DNA from: a phage
Assembly (NCBI GenBank): GCA_018509705.1
Contig: GCA_018509705.1_3630.1
DNA length: 64,000 nucleotides
Strand: one strand, 5' to 3'
Part shown: positions 6,567 to 37,104 of the stretch, one piece after another
Position numbering within the stretch: the stretch's first letter is position 1
Layout: each line of letters opens with the position of its first letter
Notes under the pieces: generated by a model
The model's input: the letters and a program-made list of their open reading frames with translations, nothing else
What the model was told of the DNA's origin: nothing
The model's database searches: none
Translations under genes and position numbers: made by a program

Positions 6567-9500
6567 TTACTTCAGTTTCTCTTGCAACCCAGTAACAACC
6601 TCTGTCAATTTTTTAACCTGCTCCTCAAGGGCGGTTATTTTATCGTCCTGTTCTCTGCAAACCTGGACAAGCAAGCCTGTTACGGCTGCGTAATCCACGC
6701 TGTAGAATCTTTCCTCTGTTATCAAAGGAGTTCCATCTTGATCAGGGTTTGGGATTTCCTTTCTTTGCACGAAAGAGCTAACTGCTTCCGGCAGTGCTTC
6801 AAGCACTTCTTGTGCTATAACACCTGCATAAGGCATACCGTTCTCTTTAAGAGTGTAAGTATAACCCTTCATCTTCCGGATAGCTTCTAACGCATCAGGA
6901 ATAACAGATATGTTGTCTTTCAGGTCTCTGTCAGAACTCTGATTGACAGATGTGCAATTCACAGCACCGTTTACAGAAAGATATCTTGATTTATCCGGCA
7001 AGGTACCGCAATGCCATACCCAATTTGCTTGAGACTCGTCAAGAACCTTAAACTCTAACACGTTTGGGCGATCCCCTGTGCTGCCGTTGCCCCAATAATG
7101 GAGTACAGCATCATCTTTAGGCAAGTTATCGGCGTTGGAGGAAAGACCATTAGCACCGACATGAATTTCCAGCTGAGTGCTGTTTTCGCCGAAAGTGTAA
7201 TTAGGTCTTAACTGAATGCCCTTACCAGCATCGTGTCTCCATTCTTCCCAAGTAAAGACATCGCCAACGTAGTTACCAGCACGAGTATATCTGTCGCCAA
7301 AATAGGTGATGTATTCCTGCACACAACCTTGCGGTCTGTTAGCTGTGTTTTTGTAAACAAGCAGTGTACCAGCGTACGGAGCAGGGTAGTGGCGATCTAT
7401 TACAAGTGCGTCAGCGTTTGAACCCTGGTGATAGAAACCTTCACGGCTACCATCGTAGTCATTAAGGTCTTCTGTCCCCAGACCTTGACCACGGTGCTGA
7501 ATAACTTTGTTCCACGCTCTGTGGTTTCCTTGCTCTATGGAACGAGTGTACAGCTGGTCTAAACGACCTGCCATCTGGAAAGCGTAGTTTCCAGAAAATG
7601 CCACAGACAACCCACCAACAACCATTGAACCTTCAGGTCCGTTGACGTTGCCAGCCAGTATTTTTGACGGATTATTATTCCCGAACTGATTGTTCCAATC
7701 TGCACCAGTATGACATACAAAACCGCCAGGGGCTGAGAAAGTACCGTCCTTGTTGAAGTTGTAGAATCTATGAGCTGTGCCTACAACATCGCGAACAATA
7801 ACTTGACCCGCTTCCGGAGTAGATCTGAACTCTGCCTGACCTTTGAGACCAGCACCATTACCGCATTTAGAGGTAAACGTACCGTTAGTCAGATCCTCTG
7901 TCCCATCGGATGCACACTGGAATCCTGCATTAGAGAATAACGCCTTTCTAGGACTGCCGTAGCACAAATAGTCAAGACCGTCTGCCCATAGCTCGACTTT
8001 TGGCATATTCATTTTGCTCATCACAGCATAGCGTTCAGCAGTGCCTATATAGTGCCACTGTGTGCCGCCCCCAGTGTAGAACCCTGAAGTACCTTTGAAG
8101 TCAACAATAGGTCTGGTATTGGTGTTGTTATCTCCAAGAATAGCAAGATTCAAATCTGCTGACTGAAGAGGTGCAACGAACTTAACCCCATCCTGATTGT
8201 CTGTTACAGCCCCAACCTGGTAATCTTGCTCTCTGGTAAACACTTCGACAACATTTCTACTTGCGTATATGCTGACAGGGAAAGCACGAGCCTCTACATA
8301 GAAAGCAACATACTCTTGTTTACCCCTTGTTGGAGCAACCATCCCAAGAAGTGCTTTTTCATTCTGGTAGAAATTTACTACCCCGTAGAAAGAGTCTCCC
8401 CTGTCAGTCCAGCCACCAGTTCTATAGTGACACTGCAGGGTGGCACAGTTCATAGGGTCATTTCCAGATGAAGACCTGGTGACTATAGTAATATCAGTGC
8501 CAGTTGCTGGAGCATAATATGGATCTGTTCTAACGATGATTGGGTAGTATTTACCATCCTCCATCCCTGCGGTTCTTGGCAGTGTTAAGAAATCTTTTAC
8601 ACCTGCGGCTATAGGAACTTTGAACAGATTCTGAGCATCTGCTAAAGTTGTAGCTCCAGTGCCACCTGCGGCGTGAGATAAAGGTTCCCACTTGGCCTTC
8701 CGGTTGTTATAAACACCCCATTCCAGAGTGCCGTTACCGGATTCGTCCATCCCGCCATCCCAGATAACCATCTTGGCGGCTTTCTTGGACCCCCAAAAGC
8801 CTCTTTCTGCTCCTGAACTACGGATCCACTCTCCAAGTCCCCAGTTTGTCAGCTGACCAGTAAGATCCCCAACCTGCATGTATTTAGGACAGTCTAATAC
8901 ACCGTCTTCGCGGAAACCTAAATATCTATGAGTTTCAGATCCTTTTGCACCTTTGTGCAGGTGGATTGTCAACCAAGTCTTATTGTCGTTTCTTACCTCA
9001 GAGTAGATCCTATACCCATGCTCAAGGACACCGTCAGCGCCGTATTTATCCCCATGGAGAATACCTGATGGCGACTTAACCTCAGAAGTGCTTTGAGACA
9101 GGTAAAGGTGCCCGAAGGTAGGGGTATTTCTAGACCCGAGACCGATGTGCGATCTAAAGGTATCATCGTTACGAGGTCTGACCATCGGCTGCCATGCAGT
9201 CCACTGGTTTGTGTTGGCCTGATAGGTTCTCAAATACCAAACATCTACGTTAGAGAATGGGTAGTATTCCTGACGACAACCTGTACCGCCGTTAGCATTG
9301 TTCTGCCAAACAATCAAGTGACCAGCACCAGAACCTGCAGGGTAACCATTTGCCTCAGTTGCATAAGCAGTCATCGGCTGGTAGTATACACCATCCTGAT
9401 TACCAGTCAAGTTATTGATATTGAAATTTGGCTCAAGGGCTGCACGTTGCTTATAGAAAGCCCCGATATTGATACGGACTCCAGCGGCATCTCTGGCCCC

Positions 9501-25791: not shown

Positions 25792-26799
25792 TTATTCACC
25801 TTTCAGAGTTGCTTTAACAACCAGCTCTGGACGGGTGTTAACTGCCAGCATGGAAGTTTCAGATTCAATCTTCTCTTCACGCAGGTATGCAGAGTGTTTA
25901 TACCACATGTACAGTTCCTGTGCTGGAGTGTTTGCTTCGTTAACATCGTCTGCCGGAGCAAAGTGCAGCTGGAACATCTGATCAATACCCATCGGCAGAA
26001 TGCGAGCTTCTTTCTTAGGAATATTGCCAGAGATATCTTCGATAAAGGTGATACCTTTATGCTCAAACACACGGTATACGCTGTCTTGACCGCCAGCACC
26101 CAGACGGCGACGCAGAGGTTCCTGAGCAGAGCCGTAATAGGTGTATGCCAGTTCTACCAGCGGGTGATGAGTAACAGCACTGAAGAACTCCGGTGAGCAC
26201 AGAGCTACAATGCGATAGCCAGCTGCGTTATCACCAGCTTGCAGTGCGATGTGCAGACGAGCTTCTTCCAGAACCTCCATAGGATCCTGATCTGCTTTTG
26301 CAGGGTCGATCTCAACAGACTTCTGAGACACACCCCACAGAGTGTAGTAATCATACTGACAGGTGGTGTCACCAGGTGCATAGGATTTACCCAGAATAGC
26401 CTGGAACAGCGCTTTCTCACGCAGTGCTTCATGAGAAACACGGATACGGCGAACAACGCGGGTTACTACGTCCTGAACAGTTTTCGGAGCATCAGGAGTG
26501 AAGTAACGACGGAAGTTCTGAACATCTGCGGCAGTGATGCCTTTGTCCAGAGGGAAGAACGGGATGTTCAGGTTTTTAACCTGAGCACGTTCACTACCAA
26601 CGTAGTTACGCTCACCACCACGACGGCGTGCCGGAATGTCGGTTACAACTTCATCAACACGCTCAATCTGAGCAATTGTTGAGGTGCCGAGACGGGTTTC
26701 GAACAGATCCATACCAGTAATCAGGCGGAATTGACGTGGAACAAGGTCCAGAGTAGCACCTAAATCAACAATGCCAAATTCATCTTTACGAGTAATCAT
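25792..26799 (-). CDS. major capsid protein (335 aa)
   Basis: Size, position after scaffold/decoration-like genes, strong terminator downstream; no sequence search done. Confidence 0.55.
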   Translation of the reverse strand: MITRKDEFGIVDLGATLDLVPRQFRLITGMDLFETRLGTSTIAQIERVDEVVTDIPARRRGGERNYVGSERAQVKNLNIPFFPLDKGITAADVQNFRRYFTPDAPKTVQDVVTRVVRRIRVSHEALREKALFQAILGKSYAPGDTTCQYDYYTLWGVSQKSVEIDPAKADQDPMEVLEEARLHIALQAGDNAAGYRIVALCSPEFFSAVTHHPLVELAYTYYGSAQEPLRRRLGAGGQDSVYRVFEHKGITFIEDISGNIPKKEARILPMGIDQMFQLHFAPADDVNEANTPAQELYMWYKHSAYLREEKIESETSMLAVNTRPELVVKATLKGE

Positions 26800-33912: not shown

Positions 33913-33989
33913 TGGTCTCCACGGAGTGATTCGAACACTCGACCTCCTGATCCCAAATCAGGCGCTCTACCAAGCTGAGCTACGCGGAG
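33913..33989 (-). tRNA. tRNA-Pro (anticodon UGG)
   Basis: Hand-folded cloverleaf: acceptor CTCCGCG, D-loop TAGCTCAG, anticodon loop TTTGGGA, T-loop GGTTCGAATC, encoded CCA. Confidence 0.8.
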
Positions 33990-34000
33990 TATTTATTATT

Positions 34001-34075
34001 TGGTGGCCCTGGGTGGAATTGAACCACCGTCTGGCGATTATGAGTCGCTTGCTTGAACCTTCCAGCTACAGGGCC
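34001..34075 (-). tRNA. tRNA with CAU anticodon (Met, or Ile2 lysidine-type)
   Basis: Acceptor GGCCCTG/CAGGGCC, anticodon arm GCGA-CTCATAA-TCGC, T-loop TTCAATT, encoded CCA. Confidence 0.75.
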
Positions 34076-34076
34076 A

Positions 34077-34152
34077 TGGTGCTGATGGCAGGACTTGAAC
34101 CTGCAACCTATTGATTACAAATCAATTGCACTACCAATTGTGCTACATCAGC
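34077..34152 (-). tRNA. tRNA-Thr (anticodon UGU)
   Basis: Acceptor GCTGATG/CATCAGC, D-stem GCAC/GTGC, anticodon arm ATTGA-TTTGTAA-TCAAT, T-arm GCAGG-TTCAAGT-CCTGC, CCA. Confidence 0.8.
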
Positions 34153-34157
34153 AAAAA

Positions 34158-34256
34158 GGTGCTAGGTGATGGAATCGAACCACCTATGTATTCAACGACT
34201 ACCTCGTCTATTTTCAGGATTAAAAATCCTCGCCCTTGCCAAAGGGCTTACCTAGC
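34158..34256 (-). tRNA. atypical tRNA-like gene (about 99 nt; isotype unresolved)
   Basis: Good acceptor (GCTAGGT/ACCTAGC) and T-arm (GGTGG-TTCGATT-CCATC), but about 24 extra nt between D and T arms; anticodon arm ambiguous (AGGAT-TTTTA-ATCCT or 4-bp stem with UUU). Confidence 0.3.
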
Positions 34257-34354
34257 TCAGTATGTTGACCATGTTGCTAGTCGGCGATGACGACTGTAAC
34301 ATTTGATAATCCGGTTCTGCTTCCGGCTTTCGCTTAATTACAAGGTCAACAATA

Positions 34355-34445
34355 TGGCTGAGGGTAATGGAATCGAACCATCATCAAGTCATCCTCAACG
34401 GGACGGTTTTCAAGACCGCTTGAGCACCATTGCTCCCTACCCTCA
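34355..34445 (-). tRNA. tRNA-Ser (anticodon UGA), long variable arm
   Basis: Acceptor TGAGGGT/ACCCTCA, anticodon arm GCGGT-CTTGAAA-ACCGT, long variable arm, T-loop TTCGATT, CCA. Confidence 0.7.
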
Positions 34446-34559
34446 TTTATAAACAATACTGATAATGACACTGATTTTCGAGCAGTTAGTGACTAGTATA
34501 AACGACGATAAATATCAATGCCATTATCTGTATGATTTATGCATTTAAAACTATAAATT

Positions 34560-34646
34560 TGGTGGGGAGTGGTGGAGTCGAACCACCCGAGTCGCAATGA
34601 CAATAGATTTACAGTCTACACCGCTACCCCTACGGGATAACTCCCC
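34560..34646 (-). tRNA. tRNA-Tyr (anticodon GUA), long variable arm
   Basis: Acceptor GGGGAGT/ACTCCCC, anticodon arm GTAGA-CTGTAAA-TCTAT, T-arm GGTGG-TTCGACT-CCACC, CCA. Confidence 0.7.
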
Positions 34647-34650
34647 AATT

Positions 34651-34725
34651 TGGCACCCCGTACTGGACTCGAACCAGTGTCAACGGCTTAGAAGGCCGCT
34701 GCTTTATCCACTAAGCTAACAGGGC
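34651..34725 (-). tRNA. tRNA-Arg (anticodon UCU)
   Basis: Acceptor GCCCTGT (two G-U pairs), D-stem GCTT/AAGC, anticodon arm GCGGC-CTTCTAA-GCCGT, T-arm ACTGG-TTCGAGT-CCAGT, CCA. Confidence 0.75.
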
Positions 34726-34821: not shown

Positions 34822-35160
34822 TTAGCTATTGCTAACAGGTTGTATTTCTGTGGTAAATGGCATAAAAGGTGCTGGTTTTTCAGCCTCTTCTACTACCACC
34901 TCTTCCTCTTCACCAAACATCTCATCATATTCTTCCTGCATTCGGTCTGCCTTATCAAGAACATACTCTGCAATGCTTTGACGAATATTTTGTTTGGTTT
35001 TCGGGTCCAACATCAGCTCTCTTAAAACTTTGTGAGCTTCTGGAACCATCGCTATAAAAGATTCCTTCATATCAAGGATGTTCTTCTCTAGCTGAATGGC
35101 GTTGGACTCCTCTTTCAGAGGTCTGCCTCTACGGCGACGCTTTTTAGTTGTATCCGCCAT
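34822..35160 (-). CDS. hypothetical protein with basic N-terminus (KKRRRRGRP) and acidic C-terminus
   Basis: Track ORF trimmed to the ATG preceded by GGAGGA. Confidence 0.35.
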   Translation of the reverse strand: MADTTKKRRRRGRPLKEESNAIQLEKNILDMKESFIAMVPEAHKVLRELMLDPKTKQNIRQSIAEYVLDKADRMQEEYDEMFGEEEEVVVEEAEKPAPFMPFTTEIQPVSNS

Positions 35161-35504
35161 GTTTCCTCCATTATCACGTGATAGGTGGATTTTATCATAG
35201 CAAATACTGATTGTCAAGTTCGCCGCAGGGTGGTATTCCCTGCGACTTGTCCAGCGTCCTGGACCAGCAAGACCCAACAAGTGGGTTACCAGAGCCCATT
35301 ACCGCACTTTGGCTCGACCTTATTACAGGTTGGCTGGGGTCACATCGTCATGTGCTGGCTGCCCCTACCATTTTAAGTGTGGTGCACTATCAAGCCCTCT
35401 AAGGGGAACTCAGCCTTCTCCGAACCCTGTTTCAAAGCATCCGGAGATAAAGCCATCAAATTCATCTTTAAATTGGATATTCATCATGATACACGAAAAC
35501 AACC

Positions 35505-35747
35505 TCATTGTAAAGCACAAATAAATAAAACATACTTAATTTGTTTGTTATCAGGCTCAGGGTAGAAGTAGAAGATCTTGCTATCACCGATCTGAACACC
35601 ACCATCCCAACAGCATAGCCCATAACCCGTATTCATACAAGCTAAGTCGTTGGCAAAATCTATTGCATCATCCAGTGCACGAAATTCACCTTCATCTTCT
35701 AAATAATCCTCATTCATGGAACGAAAAACGAGCTTAACCTTAAACAT
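35505..35747 (-). CDS. hypothetical protein
   Basis: ORF track. Confidence 0.3.
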   Translation of the reverse strand: MFKVKLVFRSMNEDYLEDEGEFRALDDAIDFANDLACMNTGYGLCCWDGGVQIGDSKIFYFYPEPDNKQIKYVLFICALQ

Positions 35748-36601: not shown

Positions 36602-37104
36602 AGCTGCCTCCTCTTCAAGTTATAGAAAAACTAACTGTATCGCTTTGTAACGAGCTTTTCTATCAAACTGGTGCGATTGCATTACCTGGTATAGTTTATA
36701 TAGCTGTGGAGCGATTTAGGTGCCTTCTTGTCCGTTTCCACACATAAACTTCATCCAAGCTCGCGCGGGAGACTCTCAACCGACTCCTTCCGGCGCTGGC
36801 AAGCTTTCGTCGGTGGTCCACATCAGTGCTCGGCCTTTGGCCTGCGCTATCGCTTCGCTCTCACACATGTTAACAGACCTGCATGTATGCACTTCTGTTA
36901 TTGTGTGCACCAGGGAGGCCCGGCATCTCGCCCCTCGTAGGCGAGTGCCAATGAAGGGCCGACACTACCCATAGTAAGTAATAAATTTAAAACATGGTAC
37001 TTAGGATCTAATATATTCTACATAAGTTAAGTATATGTACTTAGTACCATAAGTACTAGATCTTTTGTTTTTTATTATTTAGTTATTTTAGTTATATTCT
37101 TTAT

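Follow-up and report, generated by a model that had tools for sequence, protein, structure and literature searches.

The island at positions 35200-35445 is a non-coding RNA locus, and nucleotides 35285-35367 of the minus strand are a member of an apparently undescribed family of pseudoknotted RNAs, 85-115 nt long; both statements are very probably correct. The DNA analysed, termed the window in what follows, is a stretch of 64,000 nucleotides from Escherichia phage rV5 or a near-identical relative, and over the island it matches phage rV5 (DQ832317) with 100% identity. The family fold is a nested double pseudoknot (helices Pa and P1) around a three-way junction (P2, P3h and P4). Across unrelated phages the helices change by compensation, while the single-stranded nucleotides of junction and loops are nearly invariant.

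The island lies within a 344-nt gap between ORF75 (35747..35505) and ORF74 (35160..34822). An earlier note on this DNA had described it as GC-rich, and its GC content is indeed 53.7%, while the window averages 43.5% (sd 3.4% over 246-nt segments). A value as high as that of the island occurs in only 0.23% of such segments, and these fall in four places: 8631-8880, 26047-26345, the island itself and 36679-37010. The genes and tRNAs around the island are on the minus strand, with tRNA-Arg at 34651-34725, and 475 nt separate the lower island edge from the tRNA cluster downstream of it, in agreement with the direction and the ∼500 bp given before. The ORFs inside are short (27-71 aa) and occur in several frames, again as claimed, and they lie on both strands. 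The same note had seen the signature of the island repeated at 36700-36975. The likeness holds for composition and goes no further: the two do not align, the covariance model R1 (described below) has no match at 36700-36975, and homology between them was rejected.

The minus strand folds a little better than shuffled sequences, with z = -2.5 (344 nt) and -2.3 (263 nt). By themselves such scores are weak evidence; the strong evidence is comparative. Features of the locus are collected in Table 1.

Table 1. Features of the RNA island, in 5′ to 3′ order of the minus strand (positions are those of the window)
Feature	Position	Strand	Basis
Promoter-like site TTTACA-N17-TATCAT (10/12 matches), overlapping the end of ORF75	35486-35514	-	consensus pattern scan
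Upstream hairpin CUCCGGAUGCUUUGAAACAGGGUUCGGAG, rV5-type-specific	35418-35446	-	predicted fold
5′ conserved block UUCCCCUUAGAGGGCUUGAUAGUGCACCACACUUAAAAUGGUAGG, including hairpin CCCU-UAG-AGGG	35364-35408	-	near-identical in sister clade
Core RNA module M1, UAGGGGCAGCCAGCACAUGACGAUGUGACCCCAGCCAACCUGUAAUAAGGUCGAGCCAAAGUGCGGUAAUGGGCUCUGGUAAC	35285-35367	-	only significant R1 match in the 64-kb window
Pa 5′ strand GGGG, pairing with CCCC at 35336-35339; first pseudoknot helix	35362-35365	-	read from sequence
P1 5′ strand GCCAG in the Pa loop, pairing with CUGGU; second pseudoknot helix	35355-35359	-	CM alignment
Pb hairpin CACAU-GACG-AUGUG	35341-35354	-	CM alignment and sequence
Pa 3′ strand CCCC	35336-35339	-	read from sequence
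Three-way junction (P2, P3h, P4), most conserved part of the module	35293-35335	-	identity to T4-like copies, covariation
P2, AGCC x GGCU	35332-35335 x 35293-35296	-	sequence, covariation
P3h hairpin ACCU-GUAAUA-AGGU, followed by junction CGA	35317-35330	-	sequence
P4 short hairpin GC..GC, followed by junction GGUAAU	35304-35313	-	sequence
Invariant UAA within the GGUAAU junction	35299-35301	-	conservation
P1 3′ strand CUGGU	35288-35292	-	CM alignment and sequence
Downstream hairpin ACCCA-CUUGU-UGGGU	35272-35286	-	predicted fold
Downstream hairpin GUCCAG-GACG-CUGGAC	35249-35264	-	predicted fold
Downstream hairpin CGCAGGG-AAUACCA-CCCUGCG (that of the earlier note)	35224-35244	-	predicted fold
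Promoter P74, TTGACA-N17-TAAAAT (11/12 matches), with TG, before ORF74	35189-35217	-	rV5 record annotation (sigma-70-type) and scan

Judged from its pattern, the promoter-like site at the end of ORF75 may possibly start an island transcript near 35479, and P74 bounds the RNA island on its downstream side. Between them the parts are unequally conserved. The hairpin quoted in the earlier note, gcaggg-tggtatt-ccctgc, exists (35225-35243) and is extended by a pair on the minus strand. It belongs to the portion that is not conserved in the sister clade of rV5, and the conserved element is instead 35285-35408. The sequences of all three downstream hairpins (35224-35286) are likewise not conserved in that clade, which has other hairpins there. 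No U-tract follows any of the three, and a scan of the island found no terminator.

Membership of the family was assessed with R1, a model built from T4-like copies alone, without any rV5 sequence. It gave one significant match in the 64-kb window (38.1 bits, E=5e-9), which spans the full length of the model (positions 1-113) and lies on the minus strand at 35285-35367; the second-best match scored 12.3 bits. The ∼43-nt junction stretch recurs with 90-97% identity at a site in ∼690 T4-like phage records. The strand order of the family is Pa (with the P1 5′ strand in its loop), P2, ACCU-GUAAUA-AGGU, CGA, GC..GC, GGUAA and the closing P1 3′ strand. Its P3h-junction pattern, (A/G)CCU-GURAWA-AGG(U/C), C(N)A, GC..GC, GGUAA, appears in the window as ACCUGUAAUAAGGU-CGA-GCCAAAGUGC-GGUAAU (35298-35330). 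The P2 helix that closes the three-way junction and the pseudoknot in which the Pa loop pairs 3′ of the junction as P1, both features of the family, are also present in rV5.

The core is carried by the ∼690 T4-like records just 5′ of the gene vs.8, by all 119 rV5-like records, by the rV5 sister clade and by several further phage lineages. The copy of T4 itself lies directly after denV, and in some records an over-long vs.8 annotation covers the module. In the sister clade (L216-218, L244, L260) Pa, Pb and P1 are kept at the syntenic position with different sequences, and the 35364-35408 block is near-identical, unlike the ORF74 coding sequence that flanks it. No stretch is better conserved between rV5 and this clade than the island. 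In a megablast comparison of an 851-nt stretch, the island alone matched rV5.

Searches elsewhere were negative. Rfam 15 (4227 models) at the gathering threshold found only tRNAs in the whole window; at E≤10 in 35100-35560 it gave only chance-level matches (SNORD126, 15.8 bits; toxic sRNA, 12.7 bits), both outside the module, and at E≤1 it matched nothing at six T4-like loci. A blastn search of 5,426 E. coli genomes found no match to the island. In bacterial genomes there were at least 120 matches to a degenerate 18-nt pattern, and these look like chance because none of the 80 loci screened with R1 did better than E=0.037. The literature on the module sequence, vs.8, rV5 RNAs and surveys of structured phage RNAs yielded no description, while a 2023 catalogue of ∼10,000 unnamed phage RNA candidates may include the module.

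The fold is supported by covariation. Among 15 T4-like sequences, 96.5% of alignment cells pair, compared with 30-43% when partners are slid, and seven pairs are compensatory, both pseudoknot helices included. For 47 distinct sequences from all lineages the figure is 94.9% versus 28-39%, a percentage that is inflated by the fitting of the cross-lineage alignment to the structure of the model. Compensatory changes affect 13 of 22 pairs in this larger set, and the covariation score of 0.233 (0.060 in shuffles) was reached by none of 500 shuffles. Across lineages they are seen in all four pairs of P1, in both of P2, and in one each of P3h and P4. Cognate P2 strands outdid non-cognate ones in 2000 of 2000 permutations. 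For P1, cognate partners exceeded permuted ones in 5000 of 5000 trials of a narrower test; in a wide-window permutation over all lineages the result was not significant, 565 of 2000 permutations reaching the observed value. G.U pairs (P1 GU:7, P2 UG:12) are possible only on the minus strand of the window.

Pa was counted formally in the 15 T4-like sequences only, and elsewhere, the sister clade included, its changes were read by eye: GGGAA/UUCCC versus GGGAG/CUCCC and UGAAUG/CAUUCA versus UGAGUG/CACUCA in other lineages, and GGAAC x GUUCC at the same place in the sister clade, altered on both sides relative to the GGGG x CCCC of rV5. P1 is GAGG x CCUC in the sister clade and GCCAG x CUGGU in rV5, where the CM alignment pairs CCAG with CUGG. 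Pb reads CUAC-GGACGC-GUAG in the sister clade and CCUCAU-GAUUCU-AUGAGG in T4; a further, 47-kb lineage has no hairpin there, so Pb is variable scaffolding. Two early guesses at helices were dropped: the rV5 hairpin GAGCC..GGCUC is broken in L015, and GUGAAC x GUUUAC shows no covariation.

Could the minus strand of the island instead code for one or more small proteins, such as those of the 34-aa ORF at 35299..35195 or the 36-aa ORF at 35520..35410? Short ORFs are present, rV5 and the sister clade share a short stretch, AAAGAUGAAUUUGAUGGCUUU, at the upstream island edge, and the 34-aa ORF begins in the conserved UAAUGGG. The earlier note had named a conserved minus-strand protein in related phages as the observation that would speak against an RNA. 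What we found is a 34-aa ORF whose frame is shifted by a 1-nt insertion in L015 and L277, and, in the sister clade, corresponding ORFs of unrelated sequence with indels of 1, 2, 8 and 14 nt, none a multiple of three. Nor is the frame conserved across T4-like modules, in which the distance from AUGGA to GUGCC is 12, 13 or 14 nt, and the pattern of changes preserves helices, not codons. A coding function is barely credible. The central claim of that note, a structured non-coding RNA on the tRNA strand, is borne out.

That the island consists of decayed tRNA genes, or of functionless GC-rich junk, is highly improbable. Other genera of Vequintavirinae carry tRNA-Cys/Arg/Leu genes where rV5 has the island, and in KB57, PVP-SE1, 4MG and Hena1 tRNA genes stand directly upstream of the ORF74 homologue, at the position of the island. 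The seven tRNA genes of the window are at 33913-34725, and neither ARAGORN nor the Rfam tRNA model (E≤10, 35100-35560) found one in the island. Against decay stand also the conservation between rV5 and the sister clade, the compensatory changes that preserve the fold and the presence of the module in T4-like and other phages. The island bears no similarity to the tRNA loci of the related genera and has no tRNA-like fold; identity as a tRNA remnant was rejected.

The T4 species 1/2 stable RNAs (rnaC, rnaD) resemble the module in being small, non-coding, tRNA-associated and on the same strand as the tRNAs. They differ in that the end of rnaC looks like a tRNA T-arm (GGUUCGAAUCCCGG), whereas the module is a pseudoknot around a three-way junction. 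R1 had no significant match at a T4-like rnaC/rnaD locus (L220, 3888-4151), with a weak 14.7 bits elsewhere in the 8-kb region. The island matches T4-like genomes by blastn only at the denV/vs.8 site. A relationship was rejected, there being no homology; the T4 copy of the module stands elsewhere, after denV.

The topology of the fold raises the question of a self-cleaving ribozyme that would process the polycistronic transcript, either of a new class or as a very divergent relative of the HDV-like ‘theta’ ribozymes. The strand order of HDV-like ribozymes, a nested double pseudoknot running P1-P2-P3-P1′-P4-P2′, is reproduced exactly, with Pa as P1, the P1 of the module as P2, Pb as P3 and the junction domain as P4 (that is, Pa, P1, Pb, Pa′, junction domain, P1′). 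Conservation in the module is concentrated in the P4 equivalent, which in HDV-like ribozymes is dispensable. The P1 equivalent has no G.U at its base and starts with A-U or G-C pairs, and P1.1 is precluded, since the two nucleotides that follow Pa′ are engaged in P2, which covaries. In place of a short P3 with a conserved L3 there is a 5-6-bp hairpin with the loop GACG (rV5) or GAUUCU (T4), and P3 and L3 are absent altogether in the 47-kb lineage. Models of the HDV, hammerhead, twister, pistol and hatchet ribozymes had no match. Theta ribozymes are known from gut phages, where they adjoin tRNAs; both families are found in phages and both are tRNA-associated. HDV-like catalysis obligatorily needs a C at the first J4/2 position (PMC10879173). 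This C is wanting: the J4/2 of the module begins with U, G or C, the P2 3′ strand being followed in T4-likes by UUUAC.., GUUAC.. or UAAAU.., while in rV5 J4/2 is almost absent and GGCU leads directly into CUGG. Theta ribozymes moreover lie within 5 nt of tRNAs, the module tens to hundreds of nt away. HDV-like or theta identity was rejected, as the topology fits and the catalytic features do not, and we consider any ribozyme reading very unlikely.

Genomic context bears on what the RNA may do. Outside the T4-likes the module is usually inside or adjoining tRNA arrays, on the same strand, as counted on a few dozen loci found by sequence pattern and not as a genome-wide statistic. In L212 and L257 it has a tRNA on either side; in L290 it follows the last tRNA by 43 nt, and in L203 it follows tRNA-Ile by 140 nt. 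In the 47-kb lineage it precedes tRNAs by 190-340 nt, an 8-bp stem (GUUGUGAC..GUCACAAC) encloses it, and it is set in a ∼900-nt stretch of hairpin-flanked modules without substantial ORFs. Tandem copies occur in L046, L058, L071 and L282. In the sister clade the island is flanked by two promoter-like sites (11/12 and 10/12 matches), and a TTGACA-N17-TATACT promoter-like site stands where rV5 has the hairpin CUCCGGAUGCUUUGAAACAGGGUUCGGAG. This recurrence of the core in or beside tRNA arrays of several unrelated lineages makes a functional or processing link with tRNAs plausible. Physical co-processing with the tRNAs in rV5 we infer rather than observe, because ORF74, with its own strong promoter-like site, intervenes.

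In most T4-like loci examined the module occupies a fixed place directly 5′ of vs.8, ∼50-60 nt before the start codon, and a second covarying hairpin with a GGA loop comes between module and start codon. A cis-regulatory mRNA leader, whether a riboswitch aptamer or a protein-binding operator, might on this ground control translation of vs.8 in T4-likes and of ORF74 in rV5. Tandem copies are known for some riboswitches, compact pseudoknots whose junction does not vary are typical of aptamers, and the T4 gene 32 leader offers a parallel, the T4-like module being likewise a pseudoknot in the 5′ untranslated region, here of vs.8. The module departs from leaders of the gene 32 or riboswitch type in occurring also where vs.8 is absent and no protein gene adjoins it: within tRNA arrays, flanked by tRNAs, or following a promoter of its own. 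The gene vs.8, encoded by 1010 phage records, is confined to T4-like phages, and no homologue was found in the window. Where vs.8 is present it may be separated from the module by another gene, as in L013 and L200, in which the module precedes an internal-protein-like gene. In rV5 the module is upstream of ORF74 with P74 between them, as a promoter is in the sister clade too, and because of this promoter the main ORF74 mRNA would not contain the module. Several lineages have tRNAs as the next genes, or the module between tRNAs, and neither a terminator nor an alternative pairing that would sequester the SD is evident. A leader function is improbable.

A second cis-acting reading, also unlikely in our view, has the module act on its own transcript, as a processive antitermination signal working on RNA polymerase in the manner of HK022 put, or as a nuclease roadblock that shields long untranslated stretches, such as tRNA arrays and other RNA modules, from Rho, RNase E or exonuclease. 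Consistent with it, the module is always co-directional with the surrounding genes, has no terminator of its own, lies within or before untranslated arrays in most non-T4 lineages and in the sister clade comes shortly after a strong promoter-like site; its invariant single-stranded nucleotides would suit a target that is conserved among hosts, for instance RNA polymerase, Nus factors or Rho. Like put and other cis antiterminators, it is a structured phage RNA placed after promoters in the direction of the operon, and these act on a conserved host machine. In sequence and structure, however, the module and put are dissimilar, put being two stem-loops and not a pseudoknot. There is no likeness to boxA/boxB or EAR either, nor any Rfam match. 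In L290, L203 and L241 the module is downstream of the tRNAs of the locus, and in T4-likes it precedes translated genes. For a roadblock, 43 nt at 90-97% identity between unrelated phages is more than would be needed.

Our own proposal for the function is tentative: the module would be transcribed with the downstream genes, fold as an autonomous unit whose junction binds a factor, and persist as a stable RNA. In rV5 it would share its transcript with ORF74 and the tRNA array, in T4-likes with vs.8, and in other phages with tRNA arrays or further untranslated modules. The factor bound by the invariant junction would be one that all of these phages have in common; the likeliest candidate is a conserved protein of the enterobacterial host, active in RNA/tRNA metabolism or transcription. 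After processing of the polycistronic transcript the module would remain as a small stable RNA beside the tRNAs. Control of one particular neighbouring gene is apparently not its role: the module is not tied to a single downstream gene, because it is followed by vs.8, an internal-protein-like gene, ORF74 or tRNAs in different phages, and it appears as an independent unit because it is promoter-flanked in the sister clade and stem-enclosed in the 47-kb lineage. Taken whole, identity as an RNA family together with a role in binding a host factor is a serious candidate, if short of probable.

Two observations sit uneasily with this proposal. The fixed spot before vs.8 in T4-likes has the look of a cis-regulatory leader, and the rV5 island is without a terminator, with a promoter-like site of its own that has only 10/12 matches.

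The 90-97% identity of the core in unrelated phage families, with its recurrence in tRNA arrays, points to a shared, probably host-directed function. It is possible, if doubtful, that the module represents a new functional class of phage RNA, exchanged horizontally among unrelated enterobacterial phages, whose invariant junction captures a conserved factor that the host uses in tRNA metabolism, RNA decay or transcription. Such a class might serve as a decoy against tRNA-targeting immunity or as a processive antiterminator for untranslated tRNA arrays. It is suggestive here that the hairpin loop reads CUGUAA(A/U), the anticodon loop sequence of tRNA-Tyr, and that tRNA-Tyr or tRNA-Arg genes follow the module in rV5-type phages. 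A conserved pseudoknotted RNA after denV has apparently gone unnoticed although T4 is among the best-studied viruses. Should its partner be found, the RNA may uncover an unrecognised means by which phages deal with tRNA supply, RNA processing, transcription or host defence, and some of the ‘dark’ non-coding DNA beside phage tRNA genes may thereby be assigned a role. Even without a partner, the module adds a new family for RNA curation; its structure can be tested, and T4 and rV5 are tractable models in which to do so.

The island fills the 344-nt gap between the rV5 genes ORF75 and ORF74, and DQ832317 (Escherichia phage rV5) and many Vequintavirus genomes are 100% identical over its region. 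Its GC content is indeed elevated, as the earlier note had it: 53.7%, where the window averages 43.5%. Just 0.23% of all 246-nt windows are at least as GC-rich, and these fall in four places, of which 8631-8880 and 26047-26345 are the sole ones apart from the GC-rich islands. The hairpin quoted in that note was located, and the ORFs of the island are short, in several frames, with nothing longer. A conserved small minus-strand protein, which the note had set against an RNA product, was not found; the island is not coding. On the minus strand its RNA folds somewhat better than shuffled versions of it (z ∼ -2.3 to -2.5). Two side observations concern the records. Eighteen ‘Campylobacter phage’ records (MG065635-MG065677, host Campylobacter jejuni) share 98–99.8% identity with rV5-type coliphages across the island and ORF74, and this host assignment looks doubtful. 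The large terminase subunit is annotated in the rV5 record as a join of three pieces, ORF64ABC (L001 1-710; DQ832317 58027-60872), an annotation that hints at interruption of the gene by, for example, introns, inteins or insertions of homing endonucleases.

A blastn search with the island matched 805 phage records. The match spans the whole island in 119 rV5-like genomes and is limited to a ∼43-nt core, at 90–97% identity, in ∼690 T4-like genomes; nothing similar was found in E. coli genomes. In T4 the core lies directly 3′ of the denV stop codon. In the T4T record (HM137666.1, our L002) it opens a vs.8 ORF that is annotated too long; most other records carry no annotation for it. T4-like loci, gathered with a search pattern and by way of vs.8 homologues, have a conserved element of 85–115 nt before vs.8, sometimes in tandem copies. 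Because the spacing across it is 12, 13 or 14 nt, so that the reading frame is not kept, a coding identity was rejected.

As annotated in HM137666.1 (L002 1903-2553; 64242-64892), vs.8 has 216 aa and begins within the RNA element. Judged from homologues and their alignment, the true start is MRTFLTG (179 aa), and gene callers produce variable, non-homologous N-terminal extensions (MDNSCATEWP.., MCQGMAQN.., MRHGRPYL..). Some records name the product ‘endoribonuclease’ or ‘RegB domain-containing’. Between module and vs.8 start, T4-like phages have a second covarying hairpin (L002 ∼2430-2480, minus; L038-L072 ∼1150-1195), with variants GCCA-AGGAA-UGGC, GGCA-UGGA-UGCC, GACA..UGUC and CAGC..GCUG, every one of them with GGA in its loop. 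Another one or two AUGGA(U/C) motifs lie nearby, and the hairpin is retained in three loci that lack the upstream module (L055, L056, L059). These features resemble CsrA-binding sites.

The structure was derived from T4-like sequences by RNAalifold and direct inspection. The loop of hairpin Pa pairs, as helix P1, with a strand that follows the entire element on its 3′ side. An inner hairpin, Pb, is optional. P2 closes a three-way junction containing the hairpin P3h (ACCU-GUAAUA-AGGU), the CGA junction, P4 (a short GC..GC hairpin) and GGUAA. Pa and P1 cross, which makes the fold a nested double pseudoknot. Among 15 T4-like sequences 96.5% of cells pair, versus 30–43% with partners slid by 1–3 columns, and seven pairs, some in Pa and some in P1, show two-sided changes. 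In each of 5000 permutation trials the cognate P1 strands matched each other better than the permuted strands did.

The covariance model R1, built from T4-like copies only, was run over the whole window with filters off. Its sole significant match covers the full model (38.1 bits, E = 5e-9; next best 12.3 bits) and constitutes the module: the rV5 island contains a member of the T4-like RNA family.

Features of the island and its surroundings in the window
Feature	Position	Strand	Remarks
tRNA cluster	33913-34725	minus
ORF74	35160..34822	minus
P74 promoter	35217-35189	minus	annotated in rV5
Island	35200-35445
Three downstream hairpins	35224-35286		lineage-specific
Hairpin of the earlier note	35225-35243		one of the three
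Module (R1 match)	35285-35367	minus
T4-like core	35295-35337
Pa	35362-35365 × 35336-35339		GGGG × CCCC
P1	35355-35359 × 35288-35292		GCCAG × CUGGU
Pb	35341-35354		CACAU-GACG-AUGUG
P2	35332-35335 × 35293-35296		AGCC × GGCU
P3h	35317-35330
P4	35304-35313
45 nt directly 5′ of module	35364-35408		near-identical in sister clade
CCCNUAGAGGGCUUGA(U/A)AGUGC	35383-35406		upstream copy
AAAGAUGAAUUUGAUGGCUUU	35410-35484	minus	peptide KDEFDGF
Upstream hairpin	35418-35446		lineage-specific
Promoter-like site	35514-35486		10/12 matches; weaker than sister-clade site
ORF75	35747..35505	minus

Further lineages were found by running a degenerate pattern over viral and metagenomic contigs and screening the matches with R1. 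rV5 has an uncultured sister clade (L216-218, L244, L260, L285) that carries the module in the rV5 gene order (homologues of ORF76 and ORF75, island, ORF74 homologue, tRNA-Arg, tRNA-Tyr); its Pa (GGAAC × GUUCC), Pb (CUAC..GUAG) and P1 (GAGG × CCUC) are each altered on both sides relative to rV5. The 47-kb lineage, on 46–70-kb contigs (L194, L199, L207, L210, L213, L227, L241, L267, L284), has UGAAUG × CAUUCA or UGAGUG × CACUCA as Pa, CGGA × UCCG as P1, ACC × GGU or ACU × AGU as P2, and no Pb. Single examples (L203, L212, L214, L236, L257, L290) each have their own complementary helices. In the cross-lineage alignment of 47 distinct sequences 94.9% of cells pair (28–39% when slid), 13 of 22 pairs show compensatory change and the covariation score is 0.233 versus 0.060 in shuffles (reached by 0 of 500), figures tilted towards the structure by the fitting of the alignment to the model. 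In P1 and P2, G.U pairs identify the folded strand as the transcribed (minus) strand. At 80 bacterial loci with chance pattern matches (of at least 120 matches) the R1 screen gave no convincing match.

In an 851-nt sister-clade stretch, the ORF74 coding sequence included, megablast finds a remaining match to rV5 in the island alone. The sister-clade island is flanked by two promoter-like sites, TTGACA-N17-TATACT and TTGACA-N17-TAAACT; no terminator was found in the rV5 island. The sister clade has CCCNUAGAGGGCUUGA(U/A)AGUGC once on each side of the module (L216 ∼50-95 and ∼175-215; L217 8463-8632), and the two copies may work as a pair in binding or processing; rV5 keeps the upstream copy alone. 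At the upstream edge, AAAGAUGAAUUUGAUGGCUUU is an 8-codon ORF behind a good Shine-Dalgarno (AAGGAG) in the sister clade (L217 ∼8395-8420) and lies inside a 24–36-codon ORF without one in rV5; it could conceivably encode a tiny upstream peptide. The likeness that the earlier note drew to the island at 36700-36975 holds for composition and no further. This second island (36602-37000) has homologues in rV5-like genomes only, is more variable among them than the first (89–99% identity), and has no R1 match and no counterpart in sister-clade loci.

Outside the T4-likes the module shares its strand with tRNA arrays and is inside or adjoining them: 190–340 nt upstream of tRNA-Ser, tRNA-Arg or tRNA-Met in the 47-kb lineage, between two tRNAs (L212, L257), 43 nt past the last tRNA (L290), 140 nt past tRNA-Ile (L203), and, in rV5 and its sister clade, ∼520–560 nt upstream of tRNA-Arg/Tyr and separated from them by ORF74. 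In the 47-kb lineage a stem GUUGUGAC..GUCACAAC encloses the module, which sits within a ∼900-nt ORF-poor stretch of hairpin-flanked modules. Other Vequintavirinae genera have tRNA genes at the syntenic place and no module there. In the main rival explanation the module would act in cis on its own transcript, by antitermination or by protecting untranslated arrays. Next comes a leader or riboswitch of vs.8 or ORF74; the module is 5′ of vs.8 in most T4-like loci examined, and L013 and L200 have it before an internal-protein-like gene instead. The window has no homologue of vs.8, which is encoded in 1010 phage records.

The ORF-poor stretch lies upstream of the tRNA array (L194 5104-5980, minus; also L199, L207, L213, L241, L284), and its modules are bounded by long hairpins (CACAACAGGUAAGAGCA...UGCUCUUAUCGUUGUG). 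Another part of the L194 query (positions 89-283, ∼125–190 nt) is 73–89% identical to regions without annotation in very different phages (Kuttervirus-size genomes, Felixounavirus wV8/VpaE1, IME11, Moogle, SJ46) and may be another shared phage RNA. Within the rV5 cluster, ARAGORN calls a 99-nt ‘tRNA-???’ with the four-base anticodon atcc at 34158-34256 (minus; 35.5 bits with the Rfam tRNA model), unannotated in the rV5 record. The call recurs in two rV5-like loci from metagenomes, L233 and L276, and may represent a pseudogene or else a tRNA carrying an insertion or intron.

A ribozyme, a tRNA remnant and a small protein rank after the leader or riboswitch. The helix order of the module is identical to that of the HDV fold, and theta ribozymes are likewise phage- and tRNA-associated (PMC10879173). 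However, an HDV-like ribozyme was rejected: the catalytic C, which is the first J4/2 position in HDV-like and theta ribozymes (PMC10879173), P1.1 and the G.U at the base of P1 are all missing. The equivalent of P3 is dispensable in the module, whose conservation sits in the equivalent of P4, the helix that is dispensable in HDV-like ribozymes. A tRNA was rejected with no tRNA call in the island, and T4 rnaC and rnaD are unrelated.

No Rfam model matches island or module. We found no description of the module in the literature, as far as its accessible parts go, and a 2023 survey of phage RNAs may include it among its unnamed candidates. It appears to be a new RNA class. The phages bearing it have little else in common besides enterobacterial hosts. 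An autonomous module with a common partner is favoured because its scaffolding helices vary freely, its junction and loop nucleotides are almost invariant across lineages and its neighbouring genes differ from lineage to lineage. We tentatively infer such a unit, as a possibility short of even odds: it would bind a common partner, probably a host factor, and would form part of early polycistronic transcripts, from which it would be released together with the tRNAs.
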